Source: Eledone cirrhosa (taxonomy: Eukaryota). From it: a stretch of DNA of 64,000 nucleotides. The stretch is from NCBI GenBank assembly GCA_964016885.1, contig OZ024743.1, positions 218,302,001 to 218,366,000 of the forward strand, in the 5' to 3' direction. Below, one piece after another: positions 2,670-59,109 of the stretch. The notes under the pieces are model-generated. The model was given only the letters and a program-made list of their open reading frames with translations, was not told the origin of the DNA and did not search any database. The translations under genes and the position numbers were made by a program. Numbering within the stretch: the first letter of the stretch is position 1; each line of letters begins with the position of its first letter.

Positions 2670-3050
2670 ATAGAACGTTAGTCGTTGCAGGGAGCACCGG
2701 ACAGAATGCTCTTTGTGTTTTAAATTCAAATCTTGCAGAAATCAACTTTGCTTTTCATCCTTTCCAGAGTCAATAAATTAAATAACCAGTCGAGTACTGT
2801 TCCTTCTCTCAAATTTGCTGGCTTTATACCTATCTTGATTTCTAATTTAGATACAAGGCCAAAAAACATTTGCAGGAAGGACGAAGGTAATTAAATCGAC
2901 TCCGGTACTTGGCTAATACTTTATTTTATCGATCCCAGAAGAATGAAAGGTAAAGTTGACATTGGTGGGATTCGAAATCAGAACGTATAAGGCCGTACTT
3001 AAATACCGCATTTTGTCCAACGTTCTACTCATATTATTAATCCACCACCC
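2670..3050. mobile_element. Two major-family SINE copies, tail-to-tail (+ 2670-2835; - 2836-3050)
   Basis: Core motif present in both orientations. Confidence 0.7.
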
Positions 3051-4795: not shown

Positions 4796-4938
4796 GCTCT
4801 TATATATATATAGGAAAAGAGTCAGGATCCCGACGGCTGAGCTCCGGCCGTCTCGACACCTAGATTCGAACTACTACCCTAAGTATTGAGTACTCTGGTG
4901 CGTTATGGTCCACCTGGTATCTTACTAACCCTCTTTGT

Positions 4939-4964
<26 letters not shown>

Positions 4965-4970
<6 letters not shown>

Positions 4971-5065
4971 GTCCCAAAAAAATGTATACACACTTTGATT
5001 ACCTGTACAGGCAATATTTATTAGAATGCTGTTGAAGTGTGTATACATTTTTGAGGGACATACTG
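4965..5065. mobile_element. Tc1/mariner-type MITE (~100 bp)
   Basis: TIR (C)AGGGTGTCCCAAAAAAATGTATACACACTT in a TA context; same family at 7085-7162 and 59110-59212. Confidence 0.8.
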
Positions 5066-5067
5066 TA

Positions 5068-5149
<82 letters not shown>

Positions 5150-5179
5150 CATATGTATATATATATGTATATATATATA

Positions 5180-5228
<49 letters not shown>

Positions 5229-5649
5229 TATAAAGAGTCGGGACCCGACGGCTGAGCCCTCGCCGTTTCGACAGCCAGTTCCAGATCAGAACTAGCTGTC
5301 GAAGCGCCGAGAGCTCAGCCCTCGAGCCACGACTCTATAGTCACACTCTACTGTCCCAACTATCGAATACTATGTTGAATAATGATCTAACTTGTTTAAT
5401 ACTGGTTTAATCCTGATATACATTTATAATTACAGGTGGATTCCTGAGGAGTAGCAGGGGTGACCACAGGTAAAAACGGTACTCAATAAGTTATAGATGA
5501 TAAACAGTCCAGAAATAGCCGTCGAAACGGCTTGACGTCTGCCGTCGGGGTCATACATTTTCCTATTACCCACTCTACTAACCTAAGTATTGAGTACTCT
5601 GGTGCGTTATGGTCCATCTGGTTACTTACCACAACTCCTTCGTTATATA

Positions 5650-5737
<88 letters not shown>

Positions 5738-5963: not shown

Positions 5964-6022
<59 letters not shown>

Positions 6023-6108
6023 CGATATGCAAATTAGGCTGCTCAGCCGTTAATATACATAAGGAAAGTATATACTTTCAGACGTTCAATCATCTGGCAG
6101 GAAGGTAT

Positions 6109-6151
6109 ACGATGCTGACGATAGCTAATAAGCTTGAAACTAGTACATCGT
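6109..6151 (+). ncRNA. Minimal type-I hammerhead ribozyme, intact core (family I element, ~6020-6425)
   Basis: acgatg-CTGACGA-tagct aata agctt-GAAA-ctag-TA-catcgt: 6-bp stem I, stem II, 1-bp stem III with palindromic CTAG loop, cleavage after A6145. Confidence 0.9.
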
Positions 6152-6438
6152 TCCTGTGTCAGTGTCGAACAAAAAGGCGACGATGGTTGCCTGAACACTG
6201 TACGGCGTAATTCGGGCTGTTTGTTTGTTTACAAACAAACCGAACATTATAATAAATGTTCGGTAAACCCATACGTACATATATATATGTGTGCATGTAT
6301 GTATATATATATACATACTACTGTACGTCTGTATACATATATGTATGTACGTATACATACTTACTTACTTACATTTAAGTATCAGCAGTACTAAGAGTGA
6401 GAAATGAAATTTCGTTTCATTCTTTTCTCTCTCTCTCT

Positions 6439-6483
<45 letters not shown>

Positions 6484-7964: not shown

Positions 7965-8152
7965 CGGTGGATTGGCAGTATCAGTAGAGGGTCGGACGCC
8001 ATGCTTTCCAGCATAGTTACGTCCCTTTACGATCTGAGTTCAAATCCCGCCGAGGTTGACTTTGCCTTTCATCCTTACGGGGTCGATAAAATAAAGTACC
8101 AGTAATGCACTGGGTAATTGCTGGCCTTATGCCTAAAGTAGAAACAATTATT
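7965..8152 (+). mobile_element. Major-family SINE
   Basis: TGGCAGTATCAGTAG A-box-like, GAGTTCAAATCCC B-box, core, GGCCTTATGCCTAAAGTAGAAAC tail. Confidence 0.8.
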
Positions 8153-15184: not shown

Positions 15185-16564
15185 TATACTCTCCTGCTAA
15201 ATCGAGACTACCACAAGGTGCTCGTTTAAGTTAAAATGAACTGCGTGTGTAAAAAATATTCTTAGATAATTAAAATTTCCCATTTAGTTGAAAGAAAATA
15301 AGACATTGTAAAAATTGATAACGATTATCAATGAAAGAGGAAAATGGTTTCAAGAAAATAAGATTTGATTTCTCACATTAATTTACATGCTTAGAGAAAG
15401 AACAATCTAATCACTTGAGTTATTTCCCTTAACTCATTTTATTCTAAATTTATACGCATAATAAATGGGAATAAAAAGTAACGCTGTTCTAGAAATATAT
15501 ATATGGATCGTAGTAGACTACCTTACTTCAAAGCAAAAAGATATCAAGTGTATATATCAACAGCTAACCGCTGGAACCATGAAAAATATAGAAATGAAAT
15601 ATGAAAAAGGAAACATACATGATAATAAAACAAAATCAAACATAAGAAAAACAATCAAACGATGAGAATAAAAGCATTAAATCAATAAACATTGAAAGCG
15701 TAAATCAAGAAAATAGACCTTGTGAAAACAAAACAAAAGCAAATATTAAAAGTGAATACAACTACACTAAGCACATATAGAATATTGTCCAATGAAGTTG
15801 AACCAGAACTACGATAGCAAAAATATGAATACAATTGAAAACGATAAAGATCTAAGAGTAGAAATATCTAAAGCTGGTAATTTTGGATATGACAGTAGTT
15901 TAAAGGTGAAAATAGTTACAGTATTAAATTCAATATACGATCATCGTTTTGACCGACGAAAATCCCAACACAAAGATAAATCTTAATAATGAAGCAGCAA
16001 CGTTTTTTTTTTTTCATTCTAAAAGTGAGAAAAACTGGGCCAATATTGGCGGGAAACAGATGTGGCCATGAATATACACAAGATAAATCATATAATCTAA
16101 TAATCTATTCGTCATAGGGAGTAAACACAAAGGAAAGTATAAACGACTTTAAAACTTTTCCGAAAGTAACATCTAACCTCCCCCCCCCCCCTTTCACACC
16201 AAACACAAAACGTAAAAAATTTAACAAGCAGAAAAAGAAAGAAAATATACGATCTCCCAACTCTCATTGTGGTCGACAGCAAAAATAAATAATTGAAAAA
16301 ATTATTCAGAAGCAAACAACATTACACAAATATAACAAACAATAATTGAAATGAAAAAGCACCTAAATCATACAGAAGTCATTGTTGCAACGCTTCTAAT
16401 TCATTTTATATACCTGTGTATGTATGTGCATGTGTGCGTTTCGGTGTGTCTGTATGTGCCTGTGTGTGTTTGTATGTGTATGCGTGTGTGTCTAAATGTA
16501 TGCGTGTGCGTGTGTAGTGACAGCATCCGTATGAAGGAAAAAGGACGAGAGCGCTGTATATAAT

Positions 16565-16780
16565 GGTTTCTTATATAGGCACAAGTCCAGCAATTTTGGG
16601 GAAGGGGAAAGTCGATTAAATCGACCCCAGTGCCTGACTGGTACTTTATTTTATCGATCCCGTAAGGATGTAAGGCAAAGTTAACCTCGGCGGGATTTGA
16701 ACTCAGATCATAAAGGGCCGTAATTCTATACTGCAAAGCATGGCGTCCGACCCTCAACTGATACTGCAAATCCACCGCCC
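16565..16780 (-). mobile_element. Major-family SINE
   Basis: Reverse complement of head, core and tail. Confidence 0.8.
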
Positions 16781-17368: not shown

Positions 17369-17473
17369 CAACCATCTGGTTATCGACCCTCCCAAAGTAT
17401 AACAATATATATATATAAGTTATATAAGTATATATACGTACATACATATATGTATACAGACGTACAGTAGAAT

Positions 17474-17516
17474 ACGGTGGTGATGACATCTAATAAGCTA
17501 GAAACTAGTTCATCGT
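17474..17516 (+). ncRNA. Degenerate family-I hammerhead (C3G)
   Basis: acggtg-GTGATGA-catct aata agcta-GAAA-ctag-TT-catcgt. Confidence 0.7.
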
Positions 17517-17776
17517 TCCTTTGTCAGTGTTGAACAAAATGGCAACGATGGTTGCCGAACACTGTACGGCTAATAATTTGGGCTGTTTGTTTACAAACAA
17601 ACCGAGCATCATAATAAATGTTCGGTAAACCCATATGTACATATATATATGTGTGTGCATGTATGTATGTATATACATACTACTGTACGTCTGTATACAT
17701 ATATGTATGTACGTTTACATACTTATATTTAGGTATCAGCCGTACTAAGAGTGAGAAATGAAATTTCATTTATTCC

Positions 17777-17839
<63 letters not shown>

Positions 17840-24574: not shown

Positions 24575-24893
24575 ACTGGGAAAGCGAGTGTAAAGTATTC
24601 AATGCATAAAGCCGATATATTCAAACTGATAATACAGTTCGTCCTCCATAGAGTTTCTCGATAGAAACATTGTGTAGCGATGTCATGAATCAGTAACTTC
24701 GAATGAAAATACTATATATATATATATATATATATTCAAAATATTAATAAATATAGACATTCAACGTAATCAAAATATATTTTATTATATATATTTCGGA
24801 AGTACTGTGCTGTTTTTTCAGTACGTCCTCATCAAGACTGCCAAGACTGGAATTGAACCAGCAGCACAGTTGAGGTATGTCACACATCAATTT

Positions 24894-24965
24894 ATATATT
24901 TTATCTGATGAGGACGTACTGAAAAAACAGCACAGTATCTCCGAAATATATATAATAAAATATAT
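24894..24965 (+). ncRNA. Type-I hammerhead ribozyme, intact core
   Basis: atatattttat-CTGATGA-ggacgtactg...cagtatctcc-GAAA-tatata-TA-ataaaatatat: 11-bp stem I, short stem III with palindromic ATAT loop. Confidence 0.88.
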
Positions 24966-25103
24966 TTTGATTACGTTGAATGTCTATATTTATTAATATT
25001 ATAAATTAATATTAATAACTCCAGAAACTCCCTAGTTGAGTGCTTCTAATCTATTGTAAAACTATATTCATTGATTAATCAATTAACCTTGTTTAACTTT
25101 TTG

Positions 25104-27246: not shown

Positions 27247-27252
<6 letters not shown>

Positions 27253-27596
27253 CAAGAAAGAAGATTGACATGGTTCGCTATACAATAAGGGCTTTATTCA
27301 CATTGCTGACAATTGTTTCTTTGATCTGGCAGGTCTAGAGTTCGCTATACGCCTGTTTTTGCGCCAATCGATCTCCAATACTTTGTTTATAACCAGTCTG
27401 TTTCATCGGTGCCGGTGAAAGCTTTCACCCGCACCGATGAAACAGACTGGTTATAAACAAAGTATTGGAGATCGATTGGCGCAAAAACAGGCGTATAGCG
27501 AACTCTAGACCTGCCAGATCAAAGAAACAATTGTCAGCAATGTGAATAAAGCCCTTATTGTATAGCGAACCATGTCAATCTTCTTTCTTGAATTAT
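27247..27596. repeat. 350-bp near-perfect palindrome (175-bp arms) in a (TA)n-inserted element extending to ~27762
   Basis: Centre AAAG|CTTT at 27421/27422; only mismatch seen is 27413/27430. Each arm carries a hammerhead 3' half GAAAC-AATT-GTC (27524-27535). Confidence 0.95.
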
Positions 27597-27763
27597 TATT
27601 ACTCCAAGTATAAACTACATAGAAATCACCGCGAACTCGCAGCATCACTATGGAAACGTCTTGTTGAGTCAAACTAAGCCACACGTTAATACTATCCACT
27701 ACAAGAACTACTCCAACTGGACTACATCTAAGTAGACTGCCATAACGATAACCTGTTATCCCG

Positions 27764-27819
<56 letters not shown>

Positions 27820-28143: not shown

Positions 28144-28966
28144 ATAATAATTTTATTCAATAATAATTTTACTCAGAATTAGTATCATGTCCATATTCGG
28201 AGGTAGTTGAAGAACTAACGAATCAAATTGTTTTTTTCATATGGTGTTAAGGTGAAAAGTAATACACTTTAGTTGAGGTCATGACCCTTTGAAAGGAATG
28301 GTTGAAAGGTGTTAGTAGAAATGGCATAAAAATCTATTACGAAGGAGATTGTCAAACTGATAGTTGAATGTATCTTGTGAATTTAAAAGGAATGTCAAAA
28401 TAAATGGTGATTAGTGTTGTATTGAGTTTTAAGGTGAACATAAATTAATGTTATGGCTAGGAAAGATAGTATATTAAAAGATGAAAATTATAATAAGATA
28501 ATGTGATATAGTAATGCGATAATATACAACTTAACCAACAGAATATAGTACGGTGTGGTAAATTGCACTCAGTATATAATATAACATATTATACGCTCTA
28601 AAATATTACTAAGTATGTTTATGCATAAACAATCAAACTCAGATAAGTACATGTTGGCATAGTTAAAACACATAAATTACGTAGTCTACAAAGTGCATAT
28701 ATTCACACCACATATAGAGAGAGGTACAGTTATATTGATATCTAACCAAAATATACATACGTGCAAATAGATGCAAACCTAAATACACATCTAATTCTGA
28801 GTCCAGAATTAGCCGTCGAAACGGCTTGAGCTCTACCGTCGGGGTCATACTTGTTCCTATTACCCACTCTACTACCCTAAGTATTGAGTACTTTGGTGCG
28901 TTATAGCCCTTCTGGTTCCTTACCACATTTCCTTCGTTATATATATATATACACACATATATAGAT

Positions 28967-29816
28967 ATAAGTATGTAAACGTACATACATATATGTATAC
29001 AGACGTACAGTAGTATGTATATATATACATACATGCACACATATATATATGTACGTATGGATTTACCGAACATTTATTATAATGCTCGGTTTGTTTGTAA
29101 ACAAACAAACATCCCGAATTAAGCCTTTGTCAGTGTTGAATAAAGGGGCAACGATGGTTGCTAAACACTGTACGGCTTAATTCGAGATGTTTGTTTGTTT
29201 ACAAACAAACCGAGCATTATAATAAATGTTCGGTAAATCCATACGTACATATATATATGTGTGCATGTATGTATATATATACATACTACTGTACGTCTGT
29301 ATACATATATGTATGTACGTTTACATACTTATATTTAAGTAACAGCCGTACTAAGAGTGAGAAATGAAATTTCGTTTCATTTTTTCTATTTATCGTTTTC
29401 GGTGCGCCCGGCCAATTAACTCACTCGATATGCAAATTAGGCTGCTCAGCCGTTAATATGCATAAGGAAAGTATATACTTTCAGACGTTCAATCATCTGG
29501 CAGGAAGGTATACGGTGCTGACGATAGCTAATAAGCTTGAAACTAGTACATCGTTCCTGTGTCAGTGTTGAAGAAAAGGGCAACGATGGTTGCTAAATAC
29601 TGTACGGCTTAATTCGGCATGTTTGTTTCTTTATAAACAAACCGAGCATTATAATAAATGTTCGGTAAATCCATACGTACATATATATATATGTGCATGT
29701 ATGTATATATATACATACTACTGTACGTCTGAATACATATATGTATGTACGTTTACATACTTATATTTAAATAACAGCCGTACTAAGAGTGAGAAATGAA
29801 ATTTCGTTTCATTTTT

Positions 29817-29825
<9 letters not shown>
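28967..29825. mobile_element. Family I cluster: inverted fragment plus partial tandem (period ~432 bp)
   Basis: Minus fragment 28967-29123; plus copies ~29128-29395 and ~29427-29825; GTCAGTGTTGAA recurs at 29129 and 29561. Confidence 0.85.
29512..29554 (+). ncRNA. Minimal type-I hammerhead ribozyme, intact core (family I)
   Basis: acggtg-CTGACGA-tagct aata agctt-GAAA-ctag-TA-catcgt (one G-U pair in stem I). Confidence 0.9.
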
Positions 29826-29877
<52 letters not shown>

Positions 29878-29879
<2 letters not shown>

Positions 29880-30073
29880 CGAAGGAGTTGTGGTAAGGAA
29901 CCAGATGGACCATAACGCACCAGAGTACTCAATACTTAGAGTAGTAGAGTGGGTAATAGGAAAATGTATGACCCCGACGGCAGAACTCAAGCCGTTTCGA
30001 CGGCTATTTCTCGAGTCCAGAAATAGCTGTCGAAACGGCATGAGCTGTACCGTCGGGTTCATACATTTTCCTA
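29878..30073. mobile_element. Family A short element with fold-back (relatives at 4812-4940, 5232-5370, 5506-5645, 28791-28938, 40556-40755, 42318-42470, 58786-59089)
   Basis: ~130-200-bp repeat always adjacent to (TA)n; contains hammerhead 3' half GAAAC-GGC-loop-GCC-GTC-GGGGTC. Confidence 0.85.
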
Positions 30074-30103
30074 TATATATATATATATACATATATATGT
30101 ATG

Positions 30104-30186: not shown

Positions 30187-32790
30187 CCAACTTCTGTCGA
30201 GCCGCCTACCAACTTAAATGGCTGACCGCCATCAACAGCGCCACGGAAAATAACAGCGCCCACACAACCCGCCCCAAGTTCCCCACTTACCACCTCGACA
30301 ACCCACTGCACTCCCCACTCATCAGTTTAAAACACTCCATCTCTGATATCCTACACAAACACACACACGCACAACACACAACCTCACTAAATCTCAACTC
30401 ACCACTCTCTCCAACCTGAAATCGAAGAACCTCATCTACCTCCTCTCCGACAAGGGAAAAGAATTCTGCGTCATCCGCAGAGAAGCCTACAACACCCTGG
30501 CCCTCCAAGACCTTGACGATGACAACCTCTACTCCAAAGTCAAAGGAATCACTCCAGCGCAGATCGAGGAGCACATCAACGCCGCCTGGACCAACATCTG
30601 TGACCGGCGGAAGCTCCCGAAGAAGCTGAGATACAACCTCCTCACGAGGAACAACAGACTACCCGCCTTCTACCACCTGTGAAAACACACAAACAGAGAC
30701 CCGACCTGAAGATCAAACCCATCGTATCGAGCGTGGAAGGACCGCTCTACAAAATATCATGGCTCCTAGCCAGAATACTCAAACCCATACTAGACACCTT
30801 GCCGGGACACGTAAACAGCTCCGAGGAGGTGTTGGAGTGCCTGTATATAATGGATCCCGACACCAGAAAGGCTAACAGATATGCCTTCAGCCTTGATGTG
30901 GTCGCTCTTTACACCTCGGTCCCGGCGCTCCCGGCCGTTGATATACTGATGAAACGCCTCCAATCTATCGACCTACACTGCTTCGGGCTCACCCCTACTG
31001 ACATCCACCAACTCCTATCCGTCGTCGTTGACAACACATACTTCGGTTTTCTCGACCAAACATACCGGCAGACCTCGGGGCTGCCCATGGGCTCAAGCCT
31101 GTCGGGTGTGCTAGCGATCTCATACATGGACAGCCTCGAGGCACTCACCACCTGCCATCCCTACGCCGTCGCCTTTTTCTAAAGGTACGTGGATGACATC
31201 CTCATCTTCACATCTTCCCAGGAGATGGCGAACGGAATCTTTGAGGCGTTCAACAACACGGACGAGAATATTGATTTCAGTGTAGAACACCCCAGCGATG
31301 ACGGGTCACTTGCCCTCCTCGACTTCCGAATCAACATCACGGAGCAGGGAGAGATCCACACCAACTTCTACCGCAAGGCAGCCTGCAGGGACTTGTTCGT
31401 CCACTACAAGTCTGCCCTCCCCAATAGCACTAAAAGAGGGTACATAACGAACGAGATCACGCGAATTAGAAACAGATGCAGCGATCCCGTGAGTGGTGTC
31501 ACCCACACCAAGAGATTCCCCAAAGTGCTGGAGACGAACGGGTACCCTGCCTCGCTCACAAACAGAGTAGGAGACACCAGACGCAAGAGCCTGAGAAACA
31601 ACCAAGGCAAGTGCTTCCTTAAAATACCACACCTGGGCGAGAATACCACTAACGCTATCCGCAGGGCTATACGGAGAGAGGGCCTCAACATCCACCTGGC
31701 CCACTCTGGACCCTCCCTGCGGAGATGCCTCTCCAGGAAACCCGGGAAATCGACTGACGCGTGTTCCCTCGTAAAATGTCCGATGCGCCATACGAACTGT
31801 TGCTTACGCACATACGTGGTATACAGGGTGGAATGTGACAAGTGCAACGACTACTATATCGGTACCACAATCCGGCCGCTACATATTCGGATCATGGAGC
31901 ACATCAACACCAGGGCCTCGTCTTTCCTGAAACACATCACCAAATGCGGAAACAAAGACGGAAGGCCCGTTGTCACAGTGCTAGCGACGGAACGCAACGT
32001 CGGCCCGCTACGAATCAAGGAAGCACTTTGGATCAAACGCCTAGGGCCACAAATAAATAACCGATCCGAGAGAAGCGAGACGAGGTGGTTGTTGTGAACT
32101 AACGAGGCACCAACACACGCACACACAGTGACATTCGAACGGTTGTTTTTGTGTGTGTAACACCGCCACCATCCACCGACCTAATTTTAAAAAAAAAAAA
32201 TTAAAAAAAAGAAACCAGGCAGAATACTACTACTACCAGATGACTATACTACACTGCCAGTACCAAAAACCCAACACAGATAAACAGTACAATGAACTGA
32301 CAGCTAACGAAATCCCATTCCCACAATTAAGAGAACTACTTCGACCTCTGCTTGACCACACCGATTCCGCGCGCACGCGCGCTCTGCAGAATACCTCAAT
32401 TAGTCATGAATAGCCAACAAGAGAGGACACGTTCCATTCCTCTCCGACAGATACCCCCCCTCCCCCCGGAAAAACCCCCAGTTGATGGATGCGAATACGA
32501 AATATAGAGACAATTAAATCTCTCCCAAGGTAACTCTATCTCGTGTTATTATTTTTTATTTTTTACGCTCTTTCATACGTTCCTCTACATACTATACATC
32601 TCATTCTACATTCCCTTACATCTCGTGTCATTATTTTTATTTTTACGCTCTTTCCTACGTTCCTCTACACACTATACATCACATTCTACACTCCCTTACA
32701 TCTCTCTCTTCACCACCGGATCCTGTTACCCAGAGAATTACCCATCTGCATTGTTGAGACTTCCAAAACGACCAAAAGATAATAAATCCT
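30186..32790 (+). mobile_element. Penelope-like retroelement (RT + C-terminal GIY-YIG endonuclease), 5'-truncated and decayed; probably Naiad clade
   Basis: Spliced reading gives SDKG (~30446), FYHL/VKTHK...IKPIVS, SLDVVALYTSV, QTSGLPMGSSLS, F*RYVDD, thumb FYRKAAC, a Cys-rich linker (CSLVKCPMRHTNCC) and GIY-YIG VVYRVECDKCNDYYIGTT..LHIRIMEH...LRIKEALWIK. Frameshifts near 30375 and 30679, in-frame TAA at 31180. Flanked on both sides by (TA)n; AATAAA near the 3' end. Naiad assignment is inferred from KTHK, the linker and the (TA)n target. Confidence 0.93.
30679..32097 (+). pseudogene. Disrupted PLE reverse transcriptase-GIY-YIG ORF
   Basis: ORFs 30679-31182 and 31189-32097 are in the same frame, split by one TAA immediately before RYVDD. 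Confidence 0.92.
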
Positions 32791-37200: not shown

Positions 37201-37514
37201 CCATTAGAATACTAATGAAATATACATAATAAATCATCAAAAATATAGATGAATGTGGGGTTGTACCGACACTTGTAGCTATGGAGACTTCCAGTGTTCG
37301 TGCTCCTCACACTACCCACTTAGTTGATGACCTGCAAGAATAAGTGCCGTGAGTCGGAACGCTATTTCAACGCGTCTCCCTCGCTACCCTCTAGGGCATT
37401 GAGATTAAAATAAACTAGAGCCTATATAGATTTTGCGTCTTGAATATTTTCTGGAGATGCTCATTTCCATATAATAGAAAACCTTGACTGGAAATGTTCA
37501 TTTGTATATAATTG

Positions 37515-37700
37515 TGTCTACTTTTGGCACAAGGCCAACAATTATCCCAGTGTATTACTGGAACTTCATTTTATCGACCCCGTAAGGATGAAAGGCAAAG
37601 TTAACCTCGGCGGGATTTGAACTCAGACCATAAAGAGCCGTAACTCTTTGCTGCAAAGCATGGCATCAGACCCTCTACTGATACTGCCAAATCACCACCC
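37515..37700 (-). mobile_element. Major-family SINE
   Basis: Reverse complement of head, core and tail. Confidence 0.8.
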
Positions 37701-40506: not shown

Positions 40507-40558
<52 letters not shown>

Positions 40559-40992
40559 CGAGTAGGACCCCGACGGCTGAGCTCAAGCCGTTTCGACGGT
40601 TAATTCTGGATTGAATGTCCAGAATTAGCCGTCGAAACGGCTTGAGCTCAGCCGTCGGGGTCCTACTCGTTCCTATTACCCACTCTACTACCCTAAGTAT
40701 TGAGTACTTTGGTGCGTTTTGGTCCATCTGGTTCCTTACCACATTTCCTTCGTTATATATATATATATATAATGCCAATCATTGTATGTTTGAATCTAAA
40801 TGACATGCAAAAACATATATATAGGAATAAGGTAAGCCCTAATCATAGTAGATTCAAATATCACGAAGAGATGAAGAGGGGTGGGGAGAAATGAGGTGCA
40901 ACAGAAATGAGACATGGATTGCAGGTTTAAATGTAGTCTAAATAGATGAGAAACAAAACGAGGATGTAGTTTATGGAACACCCACATGATTT

Positions 40993-41448
40993 AGAAGTCG
41001 ACCTCAGTAGGAGCTATAACATTAAGAAATACATGAACGACACCACATCATTTTGTTTTGAAAATTTTGAAAGTATGTTTATAAGTATGAATTTTCATAA
41101 TAGTGTTTTAGTTGTCTCTGTGGCCGAGTGGTAGGTACTAGAGACAGTGGATATCCTGACCTTGGGTTCAATCCTGGTCAAGAGGTGCATGTAACCTTCT
41201 TTCAGTTTTTATTTTACAACCAATAGAAAAAAACTGAAAAGGTTTACCTGGAACCTACTTCCGACCAGGATCGAACTTCAGACCAGGATCACCACCGTCT
41301 ATGATTCCTCCAGCTAGGCCACCCAGGCACCTACAAAAGTATAATGAAAATTGATAATTATAAACTTACTTTCAAAATTAAAGTTAAAAAGATGTGGTGT
41401 CGCTCATGGCTTTCCTGGAGCTATTAGTAATATTTAGGGTCGACTTCT
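40993..41448. repeat. ~450-bp imperfect fold-back with two convergent tRNA-like heads (second copy ~56619-57062)
   Basis: Ends AGAAGTCGACC/GGTCGACTTCT. Plus A-box 41121-41131 and B-box 41164-41174; minus A-box ~41310-41321 and B-box 41268-41277; central T-runs on each strand. Confidence 0.75.
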
Positions 41449-42253
41449 GGTCATTATTGAAAGTCTCTGATTTCGCAAAATACATAATATTTTTTATTGG
41501 AGAAGATAAGATATTTTTCTGCAAAAATTTGATTGCACTGTTTTGTTTCCACTTATGTATTTTTCGAAAATATTATTTATTCATTATAAAAATTAAATGA
41601 AAGCATTCTATTTGTAGGTGGACCCCCTTCAACTCCTGGCAACCAATATTTTTAGACCCAGTCCGCCACAGTACATGAGTGTCTACAAATATATATTTAT
41701 ATTAGCAGTTCACACAGAATTGCATTACTTAAAGATTTACAGAACCCCACCCTCAATAAAAAAAAAAAGCGCTGGTCATTCGGCTGCTTATTACTACCTG
41801 GGGATCGGGGCTAATTTTCATTGGTTAGTTTTAATCACGTGATGGAATCTTTGTCTCGGTTCCTACAGATATACTGGTTCAATTGAAAATGAGACCCACT
41901 CATCAACTAATAGGATTTAATCTTATTTCAAAGTTGTGAACGTCTCAGCTTTCAGAACTAAGCTTCCCAACGATCCAACTTCTTTCGTCTGTGAAACTTC
42001 AAGAAGAAATTTTAAATGAAATTCTTAATGCAAATATTTAAATTCCATCAAACGTATAGATTGTTCTTTTATTTATGTGTACACCTAACTGTATATACTC
42101 ATATATTTGTATGCATAATATACATATTTATATGCACACACACACACACACGCAGAACACAGGCATGTATATGTGCTTACGCGTGCGTGTGTGTGCTATT
42201 TATGCATGTGTATATGTGTAGTTGTCTGTGCTATTGTTTGTATTTATGGACAC

Positions 42254-42298
<45 letters not shown>

Positions 42299-42468
42299 TA
42301 TATATATATAAATATATAACGAAGGATATGTGGTAAGGAACCAGGTGGACCATAACGCACCAAAGTACTCAATACTTAGGGTAGTAGAGTGGGTAATAGG
42401 AACAAGTAAGACCCCGACGGCTGAGCTCAAGCCGTTTCGACGGCTAATTCTGGCGTCTTACTTGTTCC

Positions 42469-46774: not shown

Positions 46775-47073
46775 ATCATAGCGAAATACGGCGTTTTGGG
46801 GCATTTTAAATCTAGAGGATCCCATCCCCACTCCAGGTCTAAGTAGAGCAGATTTCTTCCAGAGAAGGATAGAAAGTGAGAGAATGGAAGTGAGAAAGAG
46901 ATATAGAGGAAGAATCGACCGCAGTACCTAACTGGTACGTTCTTTTATCGACCTCGAAAGCATGAAAGACGAAGCTGAGCTCGGTGGGATTTGAACTCAG
47001 AGAGCAGAGAGCCGAAAAGAATACTGCAAAACATTATATTCGACGTTCTAACGACTCTGCCAATTTACCGCCT
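46775..47073 (-). mobile_element. SINE variant with the same head/core but a different, longer 3' tail (also 20615-20855, 44590-44850)
   Basis: Three copies share ATTTCTTCCAG.GAA..A..AGA..GTGAGAGAATGGAAGTGAGAAA next to the SINE core. Confidence 0.7.
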
Positions 47074-51234: not shown

Positions 51235-51405
51235 ATTAGGGTCGGACGCTATGCTTTGACTCATAGAGTTACGGTCCTTACCATTCTGAGTTCAAATCCC
51301 GCCGAGGTGAACTTTGCCTTTCATCCTTATGGGGTCAATAAAATAAAGTACGAGTGATGCACTGGGTAATTGCTGGCCTTGTACCAAAAGTAGAAACAAT
51401 TATTT
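51235..51405 (+). mobile_element. Major-family SINE (a partial minus copy follows at 51718-51808)
   Basis: B-box, core and tail. Confidence 0.8.
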
Positions 51406-52849
51406 ATTATCTATTATTTATTAATTTTACGTGGTAACAGAGCTGGACAGCAAAAGGTCTTCAGAGAAGAAATACCCCTCCCCCTCAAGCAAGTGTTCTG
51501 GTCCTTAATGTCTTACAGTAAGGGAGCTGGGCTGCATCTAGGTCATGACTCCAGGGTGCACTTCTGCTGACATTTAGCCATTCGGATACCGGAGCCTTGT
51601 GTATTTAAACTGTATCGAGATTTTGTTGACAGGATCTGGCTGGAACTCCTCCCCGATGCCTCTGCTTTCAAATGCTTTCTTTACTTTGGAAAATTAATGC
51701 TGGTAGCCATGGTAATAGTTGTTTCTACTTTTGGCACAAGGCCAACAATTACCCAGTACATTACTGGTACTTTATTTTATCGACCCCGTAAGGATGAAAG
51801 GGAAAGTTATGGTAATACATCAACAGCGTAACCGCCGGCGCCAACACTACAACCGCGACTTACTCAAAGTTACTTCCCTTAGCGTGCACAAAATACAAAC
51901 ACGGTACCCTCAAATGATATGGAGGTCGTTTTTATATATTAATCTATCCTGAGAAACAAAGCATTTATTATATAGAATTTTTACTCTCTATTTTTCTATA
52001 TATGCTTACCTAATGTTTGTTGTTACCTCATACTTTTATATTTTTATTGCATTGCTCCCATGAATATATCCTATTTCTAATCTTCCCCATAATCATTTAA
52101 TATACACTTATTTGGAATTTATATTTATATATATATATATATATGTATAAATTCCAAATAAGTGCATATATATGTGTATAAATTCCAAATAAGTTACATA
52201 TATATATAATCTAATTTAAAAACTTTGGGGATTTACATTGTTTTGCTTACTTATATTTTTATCTACTCATATTTCAATATGAAATATTTTCAAATTTGGT
52301 TATTACATCTAATGGCATAATGCTGTCGGTGTTGTTAGTTTATAAAAAATTCCTTACTTATAACTTTTAATTTTGACCAATAAATCCATCAATATCAATT
52401 TCTTTTTATATATCCACAATGATATACAAAACTGAATATATATGCTTTTAGTAAAGATCGGAGCTAACAGTTCTACATCAGATTACTAGTAACAAGAAGT
52501 GAAAGAGAAACTGGAACTATTCTAGATAGGATAAAAATCAGATTACGTTGTATTAGATTGCGTTGGGTAATAGCATGGTTTTATGTAATATATTAATGGA
52601 ATCTATCTTTATATCAAATCTAAGTTGAACAACTCATAGTAAATTGGATATCATGCACTGACTTCTAAAGCTTAGCTATTTAAGAACTAAACATTTTTGG
52701 AATTTAGCAGAAAGTATATTAAATTTAAACAATCTGTATATTTATATTACACAAATACAAGGTTAAGACAAATATATGTATGCATTTTACCGCATACACA
52801 TACACATATATGAACGTGTGTGTGTGTATGCATATATATATATATATAT

Positions 52850-54942
52850 CTTAGTCTTAGTCTTAGTTCCTCCAGTCCCTTGTGGAACATTAGGCGACGA
52901 GCTTCCTCCACTTGATCCTGTCACTGGCGGCCCTTCTAGCACCTCTCCAGGTAATTCCCATCTCCCGCAGGTCCTCCCTGAATGTGCTCCGCCATGTTTT
53001 TCGTGGTTTTCCCCGTTCTCTCCTGCCACCTTCTGGTACCCAATCCATGGCAATATGAGCAGGTCGATCTGCCGGCAAACGAAGGATGTGACCCGCGAAC
53101 CGCCGTCTCCTTTTCCGGACAATGTCCCTTAACCTCTCCAATCCTGACCTCCTCATCACTTCCTGGTTGCTAACTTGGTCTCTCCATGAAATGTTCAATA
53201 TGGTCCGAATGCAACGACGGTGGAATACATCAAGCTTGTTACATACACTTTCCGTACTCTTCAATGTCTCACAGGCATATATCGCTGTTGGTACTACAAT
53301 GGACATGTAAACACGGAATTTGACGGCGTTGCCGATGGAACACCTGGACCATACCGGACGGAGTCGCTGGAAGACCGCCGCTGCTTTTCCCAGCCTTGTG
53401 CGCACATCCACCTCAGCATCCCCTTCGTCAGAGATGTTGCTGCCAAGGTATTGGAAGTGGTTTACACATTCAATGTTACGCTGACCAACCATGATGGGAG
53501 GATTTGGAGGGTCACCTGTCGACATGGTCTTGGTTTTTTCACAACTGATGCGCAGGCCAACTTTCTCTGCATTGTCATTTAGAACGTTTGTCATCTCTTG
53601 CAGGTATTCTCGGGAATCGCCTATCACTGCGATGTCATCGGCAAAGTTCAGGTCGCTTAATCTCCTTCCATCCCAACTGATGCCAAAACGAGGGTCACTC
53701 ATTGTCTTCTTCATGATGAAATCGATGACAATGAGGAAAAGGAAAGGCGAAAGGATGCAGCCTTGTCGAACACCTCTCAAGATGTCAAACCTTTCCGTGT
53801 TTCCGTCCTTTGTCCTAACGCAGCACCTGGAATGTCGGTACAGCGACCCGAATATGTTAATATATTTCTCTGGGACACTGTAGAGTCTTACAATCTTCCA
53901 CAATGACTCCCGATGAACACTGTCGAAAGCTTTCCTGAAGTCAATGTAGTTGACAACGAGGGACTTGTGGAACTCCCGATATTGTTCAATGGTATTTCGG
54001 AGAGTGAAGATCTGCTCTGAACAAGACCTTCCACTGCGGAAGCCAGCCTGTTCGTCTCGAAGATGACGATCTACTTCTGCTCTCAGCCGGTTCAGGTTGA
54101 CTGTGCAGAATACCTTCCCTGGCACTGATAGCAACGTGACCCCTCTCCAGTTGTTGCAGTTGCTGAGACAGCCCTTCTTCGGTAGTGGTACAATCACTCC
54201 ATTTCCCCAGTCATCCGACACCTCCTCTTCTTGCCAAATCACATTGCATAAATGGGTGAGCTGCTCCTATATTACATCCTTGCCGTGCTTCAGAAGCTCT
54301 GAAGGAATCTCATCCAGCCCTGCCGCTTTGTTATTCTTTTGGCAGCGGATGGCCTTGGCCACCTCAGCTCTTGCGATGTCGTCTAGTCGTACATCCAGCC
54401 GGTAGCTCGCTTCCTCCCAGTCAAGCTCGAAGACTGTTTTAGGGGATGGCTGATTGAGGACCTCACGAAAGTGTTCGTTCCACATCTGGGCCTGCTCTTC
54501 ACTGGCTGCAAGCATCCGACCATCTTTGCTCTTGATTTGGCAAACTGCTTCCACTTCGTCCTCCAGTTAGCTCTCTGACGATCCGGTACAGCGTCTTGGA
54601 ATCATTTCGATCTGCTGCCACCTGCACCTCTGCAGCCCGATCTTCTAGCCACTGGCGCTTGTCTTTTCGACAGCTCTTCTTTACTTCCTTGTCAAGACGT
54701 CTGTACTCTTTGTCCACTTCCTTCCATTGCTGTCGAGTTTTGGTTTGATCTCTTTTGTTCTTAACATTCTTCCTTTCGTCAATGAGATTCCATGAAGTAC
54801 TGCTGATCGACTGTTCCCGGTTGGTCCCCCTTCTTCTACCAATAACTACATCAGCACTCGCCCTGACCGCCTGAGAAAGCATCTGCCACTGGTCCTCACG
54901 GTTCTGTGCGTGCTGTAGTTCTTGGAACTTATTCCTTATCTC
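52850..54942 (-). mobile_element. RTE-clade LINE, 5'-truncated and decayed
   Basis: ORFs 54499-54882, 54267-54554 and 52890-54242 join through one frameshift and one stop. RT motifs: PKKG..NWRGVTLLS, EQAGFRSGRSC, IDFRKAFDSV, GVRQGCILSP, FADD, FQYLGS. RTE-type C-terminus GHILR...RGKPRKTW. 3' tail (CTAAGA)n at 52850-52866. Confidence 0.93.
52890..54242 (-). pseudogene. RTE reverse transcriptase domain (largest intact fragment, 450 aa)
   Basis: Complete RT motif set within one ORF; upstream part disrupted. Confidence 0.9.
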
Positions 54943-56184: not shown

Positions 56185-56291
56185 AGAGCATTATAAAATT
56201 ATAAGTGGGAAAAGCAAATAAGATAAAAAGCATTTTATATGTAGGAGGGCCCCCTTCATCTGGCAACCAATTTTTTAGACCTAGTCCTCCA

Positions 56292-56334
<43 letters not shown>

Positions 56335-56425
56335 GCCAATCATTGTAAGTTTGAATCTTGAATCTAACTGGCATGCAAAAACATATATATAGGAATAAGG
56401 TAAGATTTATAGTAGATTCAAATAT

Positions 56426-56518
<93 letters not shown>

Positions 56519-57154
56519 GAGGTGGAACAGAAATGAAACATGGATTACAGGTTAAAATGTAGTCTAGATAGATGAGAAACAAAACGAGGATGTAGTTTAT
56601 GGAACACCCAAATAATTTAGAAGTCGACCTTAAGTATAGCAATAACATTAAGACATGAACGACAACACGTCATTTTGTTTTGAAAATTTTGGAAGTAAGT
56701 TTATAAGTATGAATTTTCTTAAGAATTTCGTAGTTGTCTCTGTGGCCTAGCGGTATGTACTAGAGACAATGGAGATTCTGGCCTTGGGTTCAATCCTGGT
56801 CAAGAGGTACATGTAACCTTTTTCAGTTTTTATTTTACAACCAATAGAAAAAAAACTGAAAAGGTTTAACGGGTACCCTACTTCCGACCAGCATCGAACT
56901 TCAGACCAGTTCACTACCGTCTACGATTCCTCCAAGTAGGTCACCGGGGCAACTACAAAAGTACAGTGAAAATTGATAATTATAAACCTACTTTCAAAAT
57001 TAAAAAGATGTGGTGTCGTTTATAGCTTTCCTAGAGCTATTAGTAATATTTAGGGTCGTCTTGTCAATCTTCTGGCCCCTTGGTAACAAGCTTATTATTC
57101 CTATGTGTGTTTAACTGTTGAATTAATTTAATTTGATTATTTTAGCAAACAAAT

Positions 57155-57206
<52 letters not shown>

Positions 57207-58284
57207 CGGAGAAAGCTAATAGCGATACTCCGACCAAATTCCAACTCACTCAACAAACATTAGGAAATACCTGAGTATATTCCTAATTAAACGTTCGGCG
57301 TGCTAACTAATTGTATTGTGTGGAAAATTGGCTGTATCATTTCATATGAGATATATCAAATATATCACTTCCCAGACGACTCGTTTCATTATAAGATTTC
57401 TACAAGTTGGGTGAAATTATACCAAATTATGTAGAAGCTTGTATAAGATCAACAGATACTTATTCAATTGGGCTCTTATAATTCTTCAGTGGGTGCCCAA
57501 TAATATTAATATTGATAACCAAATCAACATCAATATTTAGCGATAATCACCATCAGTGCTTGGGGGAGCTGCTAGGTTGTTAGTCCAGCAGTTCTAAAGA
57601 AAATCTCACACTGTCCCGAAAATAGGAGGAAGGAGACTACCGCCAAAAACAATACATGCGCAGGTCATTGAACTCTGAAAAGAATTCAAGTCACGTGCTA
57701 GAACTCAATTGGATATGAAAAAATAACCATATGTGTGCATCGCTTAATGATACACATAGATATTTTCTCGGGCAAAATAACAGAATGAGATACAATAACA
57801 AACAATCAATATTCATATAAAAAATAAACAAAGAGAGTCATACCTTATATCGGGAAAGTTCATATCTGATATATATATATAATGCCAATCATTGTAAGTT
57901 TGAATCCGACATGCAAAATCATATATATATATGAATAAAGTAAGCCCAAATCATAGTAGACTCAAATATCACAGAGAGAAAGAGAGCGAGGTGGAGGGGG
58001 GGGGGGGGGGATAAATGAGGTGCAACAGAAATGAAAGATATTAGTAATATTTAGGGTCGACTTCTGGTCATTATTGAAAGTCTCTGGATTTCGCAAAATA
58101 CATAATTTTTATTGGAGATATAAGATATTTTCCCGCAAAAGTTTGATTGCACTTTTTTGTTTCCACTTATGTATTTTTCGAAAATGTTATTTATTCATTA
58201 TAAAAATTAAATGATTGCATTCTCTATGTAGGTGGGCCCCCTTCATCTTCTGGCAACCAATATTTTAGACCCAGTCCGCCACTG
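56185..58284. mobile_element. Second, partial copy of the hAT-type element (right-hand portion)
   Basis: Right-end motifs at 56294 and 58284; AATGCCAATCATTGTA internal blocks at 56332 and 57881 match 40771-41671. No left TIR seen. Confidence 0.7.
57371..57493 (-). ncRNA. Type-I hammerhead ribozyme, intact core, 79-nt expanded stem II loop
   Basis: Minus strand: ccca-CTGAAGA-attataag-(79 nt)-cttataat-GAAAC-gagtc-GTC-tggg. Confidence 0.85.
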
Positions 58285-58836
58285 ATTGAAGCTGTAGGTG
58301 ATTTGAAAAATTATTTTATGTCGGAATCCCAAACGCAGAAAATAGCTGTAAGCAGACCCTTGGTTATATGATTAGAACACACGGCTGGAATTTGAGGGCT
58401 GGGAAGTTCGATTCTCGAGAGCGACTGCTGGCCACTTTATCCCGCCCATAGTGATATTTTAACCGATTTTCTAAGCTATCATTTATAGTGATAAACTGTT
58501 CTCACAATTCTTTTCTAAGATTGGGATACCTATGTTTTCACACACACACACACATTATATATATAATATATATAATATATATATATAATATATACAATAT
58601 ATATATAATATATACATACACGGCAACTCGATTTCAAGTAATGCCATCGCTTGATACTTTTTACTCCTGCAAGGAATTTACCTATGGCCAGCAATACCAT
58701 GCATCGCAAAAAATGTCACTTATTATGTGATGTCCGTGCTTGAAGCTTTTTAACACACACACACACACACATACACATACATATATGCGTTATGGTCCAT
58801 CTGGTTCTTTACTACACTTCTTTTGTTATATATATG

Positions 58837-58904
<68 letters not shown>

Positions 58905-59109
58905 ACAAAAGAAGTGTGGTAAAGAACCAGATGGACCATAACGCACCAGAGTACTCAATACTTAGGGTAGTAGAGTGGGTAATAGGAAAATGTTTAACCC
59001 CGACGGCAGAACTCAAGCCGTTTCGACGGCAATTTCTGAAATAGACGTCGAAACGGCTTGAGCTCTGCCGTCGGGGTTAAACATTTTCATATATATATAT
59101 ATATATATA

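Follow-up and report, generated by a model that had tools for sequence, protein, structure and literature searches.

Metazoan non-LTR retrozymes comprise units of 225-245 nt in coral, 350-390 nt in mussel and 330/350 nt in axolotl, and canonical type-I hammerheads have been tied to them (PMC7229834). The canonical metazoan hammerhead has a 6-bp helix I, a 4-bp helix II and a helix III of 1-2 bp with a palindromic loop, and is distinct from the minimal hammerheads of PLE pLTRs (PMC4209133). PLEs show partial tandems, an adjoining 5′ inverted copy and a bias for (TA)n as hallmarks (PMC8557442), and a PLE was shown to start reverse transcription internally, at a stem-loop downstream of its hammerhead (PMC11167929); the part played by PLE hammerheads is called unclear (PMC11167929, PMC8557442). 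According to the available text of a 2020 review, animal retrozymes carry no motif naming their mobilising enzyme (PMC7761336). A preprint (bioRxiv 10.64898/2026.07.22.740005) argues that non-LTR retrozymes represent non-autonomous PLEs and that the two form one class, based on co-occurrence and pLTR homology in vertebrates; molluscs do not figure in its accessible part. For Octopus vulgaris, 31 recently active PLE families are reported in PMC13282606, the available sections of which do not mention retrozymes. A literature search retrieved no cephalopod retrozyme, and supplementary tables or repeat databases may list such motifs.

Here, we analysed a 64,000-nt stretch of the Eledone cirrhosa genome (contig OZ024743.1, forward-strand positions 218,302,001-218,366,000), hereafter the window, which is rich in microsatellites and mobile repeats. 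It contains a repeat, Family I, at three loci (29k, 6k and 17k). In our view, Family I is probably a non-autonomous PLE of non-LTR retrozyme type whose repeat unit is genuinely 432 nt long and whose three copies are dispersed insertion products, since it combines a canonical type-I hammerhead and a non-coding, self-paired unit with PLE-type scars. On these points an earlier note, which had proposed a retrozyme or non-autonomous PLE from the bare letters, holds up, but the processing it envisaged at 29k does not.

The 432-bp unit and its copies

The 29k locus and the two further copies consist of the following features, with monomer positions counted from the hammerhead cut site.

28941-28961, no strand: left-hand TA-rich run, short and interrupted
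28962-29125, minus strand: inverted 5′ arm, which repeats 29174-29337 (monomer positions 58-221) as its reverse complement
29124-29393, plus strand: partial unit A, 270 bp, pseudo-LTR-like, without hammerhead
29394-29825, plus strand: full unit B, 432 bp, non-coding, 35% GC, ~60% paired, followed by (TA)n
29671-29752, plus strand: long TA/TG-rich hairpin within unit B
29794-29825, plus strand: 3′ hairpin (29794-29814) and common 3′ end at monomer position ~277
29826-29878, no strand: right-hand (TA)n target
6023-6441, plus strand: dispersed 6k copy between two (TA)n stretches, without inversion, its 5′ truncation lying at monomer position 310
17422-17471, minus strand: inverted 5′ arm of the 17k copy
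17472-17781, plus strand: forward part of the 17k copy, from monomer position 394, ending in (TA)n

The partial tandem of period ~432 bp behind an inverted fragment, as described earlier, was recovered. At an offset of 432, 259 of 270 positions are identical, against only 125/270 at the runner-up offset, and a BLAST comparison between the region and the window aligned 29124-29393 with 29556-29825 at 95.9% identity. The head-to-tail joint is seamless, and the inverted arm joins the forward part via a 2-nt overlap (29124-29125). The array comprises 1.6 units only, and TRF gave no 432 period. Between the direct repeats lie 162 non-coding bp, where an autonomous PLE would carry an RT and GIY-YIG ORF between its pLTRs. 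The first base of unit A corresponds to monomer position 8, 7 nt beyond the cut site; both the A/B junction and the 32 bp at 29394-29425 occur once in the window.

The earlier statement that the unit holds no meaningful ORF was borne out, the longest stop-free run in six frames of the circularised unit being 75 codons and the longest ATG ORF 37 codons. LTR, PBS and PPT are absent from the unit as well, PBS and PPT as judged by eye. Plant LTR retrozymes carry a type-III hammerhead in their LTRs, a PBS, a PPT and a 4-bp TSD, whereas Family I has type-I topology and ends in (TA)n. Self-folding of the unit RNA gave z-scores of -6.5 in linear form (0/100 shuffles as low) and -5.6 in circular form, or -3.1 once the TA-rich hairpin was left out. 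Two hairpins quoted in the earlier note fared less well: the second is exact only in the 6k copy, with a G-U pair in the 29k copies, and in the full unit the first carries mutations.

Copies previously placed at ~6020-6425 and ~17425-17780 were located by BLAST and nhmmer at 6023-6441 and 17422-17781. The former aligns with the 29k region over 6023-6428 (91.6% over 406) and the latter over 17472-17782 (87.5% over 320), with a shortened or decayed 3′ hairpin and an inverted arm that BLAST placed at 17422-17473. When nhmmer was run with the non-TA-rich parts, no Family I copies were found in the window beyond these three loci. Two exact-pattern scans for relatives in a bacterial and archaeal genome collection returned none, as expected for an animal repeat.

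Like the metazoan non-LTR retrozymes of PMC7229834, the unit is non-coding, below 50% GC, a few hundred nt long, predicted to form a stable self-paired RNA and equipped with a canonical type-I hammerhead; it likewise lacks LTR, PBS and PPT and shares its genome with PLEs. At 432 nt it exceeds the 170-400 nt range given in the available text of PMC7229834 and lies within the 51-972 bp of bioRxiv 10.64898/2026.07.22.740005. Unlike metazoan retrozymes, Family I at 29k has only 1.6 units and one hammerhead.

Several other repeats were observed in the window. Family II, a ~145-bp repeat (8 pieces aligned; at 4800-5660, 28787-28950, 29879-30074, 40528-40771, 42257-42457 and 58786-59107), has its 3′ end fixed within (TA)n, 5′ ends near one site and several inverted arms, and flanks the 29k and 6k copies of Family I; no complete hammerhead core was found in it, and it has the appearance of another short PLE-type element. 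At 27247-27764, a 350-bp palindrome (1 mismatch in 175) lies between (TA)n runs, with a unique tail and a GAAAC half-core at ~27653, and is likely a young inverted PLE-type insertion. The segment 32970-35771, in which 560-bp direct repeats (99.8% identical) enclose ~1.7 kb lacking any long ORF, is a young non-autonomous LTR-like element. A MITE-like repeat (40886-41700 and 56227-58284) contains an internal imperfect palindrome with, by eye, two opposed tRNA-like stretches; ARAGORN called 0 tRNA genes, these stretches included. On the minus strand, 52890-54942 encodes a non-LTR RT (Pfam RVT_1, 458-codon open frame), which we take to be RTE-like; its relatives, which come from distant animals, are 55-66% identical, and the best 120 of 563 matches name amphioxus, fish and a nematode but no cephalopod. 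Finally, an abundant SINE-like family of ~150-190 bp (907-1065, 2709-3010, 7965-8152, 16560-16780, 37505-37700, 46913-47072 and 51238-51810) presumably resembles octopus SINEs; a protein search with its translation found nothing.

The hammerhead and its predicted activity

The ribozyme of the full unit was delimited by descriptor scan and inspection:

29501-29559, plus strand: type-I hammerhead of unit B

Positions within the hammerhead follow the established numbering. Stem I comprises distal 5 bp, a 6-nt bulge and proximal 6 bp including one G-U pair; the core segments occupy 29518-29524 and 29539-29542, with the cut after 29548. Stem II (4 bp, 4-nt loop) sits on a U10.1-U11.1 mismatch, which occurs naturally (PMC3088659), and stem III is formed by 1 bp and a palindromic tetraloop. 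The 6k hammerhead (core 6115, cut after 6145) has a perfect stem I. The independent scan thus landed on exactly the two cut sites, 6145 and 29548, named in the earlier note. The 17k hammerhead is decayed, with 6/46 differences that include a stem II mismatch and C3G, a change that abolishes cleavage (PMC11167929). The label "intact" therefore applies to two of the three copies, whose cores are complete, but not to 17k, whose core is broken. Judged by its sequence, the Family I hammerhead is of the canonical metazoan type-I form, unlike the minimal type of PLEs.

In total, the scan of both strands found three type-I motifs in the window: two belong to Family I, and a third, unrelated one lies at 24728-25100 (core 24905), with a long stem II and a TA-rich stem III, of the minimal PLE type. 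It is situated inside a ~285-bp palindrome adjoining (TA)n, probably another inverted PLE end.

Since a search of the window with Rfam at gathering level, and of the two units queried at E<=10, brought up no hammerhead, the call rests on our own descriptor and on inspection. The sub-threshold Rfam matches at E<=10 (40 and 39), mostly miRNA models on the TA/TG hairpin, were dismissed as composition. Covariation analysis of 4 copies and 13 helices yielded zero double-sided compensatory changes, along with one-sided G-U/A-U swaps and several breaks. Rfam's silence and the absence of compensatory changes would fit an ordinary DNA-level repeat (a local duplication, MITE or satellite) bearing a hammerhead-like motif by chance, all the more as TA-rich DNA folds readily. 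Such an origin nonetheless seems very improbable to us: a strict descriptor gave 2 matches in the window, whereas each of 200 block-wise base-pair shuffles gave 0; both helices fit, as does the palindromic stem III; terminal inverted repeats common to all copies are absent; and copies that share their 3′ end but vary at the 5′ end bear a signature of retroposition.

In silico folding predicted the 29k hammerhead to misfold, with stem I pairing probabilities of 0.02-0.08 and the catalytic fold 4.7 kcal/mol above the misfold, which prevails in unit B owing to the G-U pair in stem I. The corresponding predictions for 6k were 0.52-0.86 and 1.4 kcal/mol. An alternative hairpin that would block the hammerhead (positions 1-7 with 34-40) was discarded at an RNA-fold probability of 0. 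Self-cofolding did not return the catalytic dimer; the computed energy of the 6-bp palindrome duplex is -4.8 kcal/mol. A 1-bp stem III and a U-U base of stem II each occur in an axolotl retrozyme, and the hammerheads concerned cleave 6% and 22% as monomers and efficiently as dimers (PMC7229834). Family I shares its weak stem III with HHR_Amex1 and its U-U stem II base with HHR_Amex2 but, unlike either in the available text, combines both. From these models and parallels, the Family I hammerhead looks weak and dimer-dependent.

Excising a monomer takes two hammerheads. Because the cut site precedes the start of unit A by 7 nt, only one is present at 29k, and none of the three loci in the window has two hammerhead-bearing units. 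The earlier proposal of a ~430-nt monomer or circle from 29k thus fails, the upstream partial unit starting at monomer position 8: no such RNA would be released there, and any 432-nt RNA would have to stem from an array elsewhere. As read from the sequence, 29k is a dead-end copy for monomer and circle production. All three loci likewise fall short of the two consecutive hammerhead units by which bioRxiv 10.64898/2026.07.22.740005 defines "active" elements, and resemble its "monomer" class (dispersed, one hammerhead, immobile), with the same conclusion on origin.

Insertion scars and the neighbouring coding PLE

All three copies stop at monomer position ~277, at most 1 nt from a (TA)6+ run, which is the case for 6% of random positions, and the 3′ hairpin sits 11 nt 5′ of this common end. 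As a hammerhead-cut RNA would end at position 432, a 3′ end at 277 would require internal initiation. The 5′ ends differ (monomer positions 8 at 29k, 310 at 6k and 394 at 17k). Inverted 5′ arms of 50-164 nt are present in two of the three copies, with an overlap of 2 nt at 29k and of 4 nt with one mismatch at 17k; the partial tandem is seen in one. The cut-site junction is crossed seamlessly in all three. A 5′ breakpoint at most 8 nt from the cut site is expected by chance in 2% of cases per copy, or 6% for any of the three.

Local folding predicts a stem-loop whose outer pair (9-59) falls on the inversion joint at 29k (8-9 with 58-59), which suggests snap-back of the cDNA at this locus. In the RNA fold of the full unit this stem has a probability of 0, and as cDNA it is suboptimal by 1 kcal/mol; a complete run-off cDNA is predicted to favour a different hairpin from that seen at the joint. 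Instead of running off a cut end, RT may therefore have come to a halt at stem I.

With its partial tandem as pLTR, an adjoining 5′ inverted copy and no visible TSD in the microsatellite, Family I is reminiscent of EN+ PLEs that favour (TA)n (Neptune, Naiad, Hydra) and of non-autonomous Chlamys elements such as MRC1 (PMC8557442), and its fixed 3′ end, variable 5′ ends and microsatellite target are those of a non-autonomous PLE. Unlike these PLEs, it has no ORF and its hammerhead is canonical, not minimal. As in Poseidon PAc (PMC11167929), a fixed internal 3′ end lies beside a stem-loop downstream of the hammerhead, albeit 277 nt from the cut site as opposed to ~85-92 nt. A (TA)n target and 5′ inversion are not described for retrozymes in the available text of PMC7229834.

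A coding PLE lies 365 bp downstream of Family I in a common (TA)n cluster, with (TA)n on either side:

30190-32790, plus strand: broken coding PLE with RT, Cys linker and C-terminal GIY-YIG

It is interrupted by a frameshift near 30660 and an in-frame stop at 31180-31182. Its C-terminal part had 6 matches among 883 candidates, the best and sole named one being an Octopus bimaculoides GIY-YIG protein (54%). The CCHH endonuclease motif is present; the unusual linker C-x4-C-x7-C, common to 4 of the 6 matches, fits neither published linker pattern exactly. Pfam recognised neither of two fragments queried. This element was considered as a parent of Family I and rejected, having no DNA in common with it and no hammerhead. 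Local alignment of two unit parts (both strands, 100 shuffles each) with the coding PLE, Family II and the 24.9k hammerhead element gave no convincing match, the best p against the coding PLE being 0.03 in 2/22 uncorrected tests, both T-rich matches. A relaxed hammerhead search of the coding PLE, including its ~700-nt non-coding 3′ end, returned 3 unstructured matches and no hammerhead. On sequence grounds, this neighbour shows that the type of enzyme is present and is not the parent. Family I thereby differs from the elements in the accessible part of bioRxiv 10.64898/2026.07.22.740005, as it bears insertion scars and is not homologous to the coding PLE of the window.

The counter-case named in the earlier note, that all copies trace to the 3′ pLTR of a coding PLE, is thus answered for the one coding PLE of the window, with which no DNA is shared. 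The copies might still be 5′-truncated 3′ ends (3′ UTR or pLTR) of a coding PLE outside the window, and the period of 432 a one-off, produced when RT carrying a truncated cDNA jumped to the usual start site on a second RNA. The single occurrence of the A/B junction would agree with this, as would the 6k and 17k copies, which never reach 5′ of 29394, the mostly 5′-truncated nature of PLE insertions and the long non-coding 3′ end of the neighbouring element. However, the hammerhead is canonical and not of the minimal type of metazoan PLE pLTRs, and 432 nt contain no ORF remnant. Together with the divergence data considered below, this makes a truncated coding PLE unlikely in our view.

Template and mode of copying

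The inverted arm differs from unit A at 1/161 positions, and A from B at 11/270. Polarised with the 6k and 17k copies, the A/B differences comprise 7 private to B, 2 private to A, 1 in both and 1 shared. The excess of B-private over A-private changes (7 vs 2) has p=0.18, the arm-A versus arm-B contrast (1 vs 5 of 161) p=0.21, and arm-A 1/161 versus A-B 11/270 a conditional p=0.04 from non-independent comparisons. At one site, A has the base of 17k and B that of 6k. This divergence leans towards two different template units, bearing in mind that palindrome arms can convert.

Two templates are also what a jump between RNAs would yield, and mixed templates would fit B as the 3′ end of a coding PLE with A added by template jump. 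Against the truncated coding PLE, in its 5′ part B has diverged as little as A has (2/130 vs 6k), its 3′ part having 7 private changes in 270, and a template boundary is hinted at near the hammerhead rather than at 29394, a weak pointer confounded by hammerhead constraint.

Under the preferred reading of Family I as a non-autonomous PLE of retrozyme type, a source array of at least two units elsewhere would be transcribed, and its weak type-I hammerheads would cut chiefly as dimers through the palindromic stem III, leaving monomers, circles and partly cut multimers. An endonuclease-bearing PLE protein, as the scar suggests, would then nick (TA)n, and RT would be primed from one constant internal site (monomer position ~277) that lies 11 nt 3′ of the hairpin. 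In all three copies RT passed at least one uncut or religated hammerhead junction. It would have halted early by a route that the scars suggest, at 29k 7 nt from the next cut site, and in two of the three copies the cDNA end would have folded back via the 2-4 nt overlap, copying 50-164 nt as the inverted arm.

The last two of these steps allow a variant that is compatible with this reading, in which RT runs round one 432-nt circular RNA, as in the published rolling-circle model of retrozymes; chance or later mutation would then account for the A/B differences and for a stop close to the cut site, and conversion would keep the arm like A. We regard this as quite possible, if short of probable. 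The seamless passage of the cut site in every copy speaks for it, as do the abundant circles of known retrozymes, the weak p-values for private changes and arm similarity, and the 6% chance of a break so close to the cut site in any of the three copies. Yet a single circle predicts equal divergence of A, B and arm, at odds with the conditional p=0.04 given above, the site at which A matches 17k and B matches 6k suggests two template lineages, and a circle offers no end close to the cut site. Tentatively, and with more doubt than confidence, we propose instead that a (TA)n-targeting PLE enzyme copied, from a fixed internal start, a linear, sequence-mixed multimer with a hammerhead-cut 5′ end, the ribozyme setting both the end of copying and the site of cDNA snap-back. 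Divergence and cut-site breakpoint are leads in this respect, not results.

The retrozyme class is known, mollusc included, and its extension by a probable octopus family was to be expected. What sets Family I apart is that a canonical-hammerhead unit bears three PLE scars together and that one copy stops beside the cut site. Its value is mechanistic, as a footprint of retrozyme movement that, from three copies, amounts to a lead. If the multimer reading is true, breakpoints anchored at the cut site would be countable over thousands of copies in octopus genomes, so that the circle model, and the part that PLE hammerheads play, could be tested within the genome itself.
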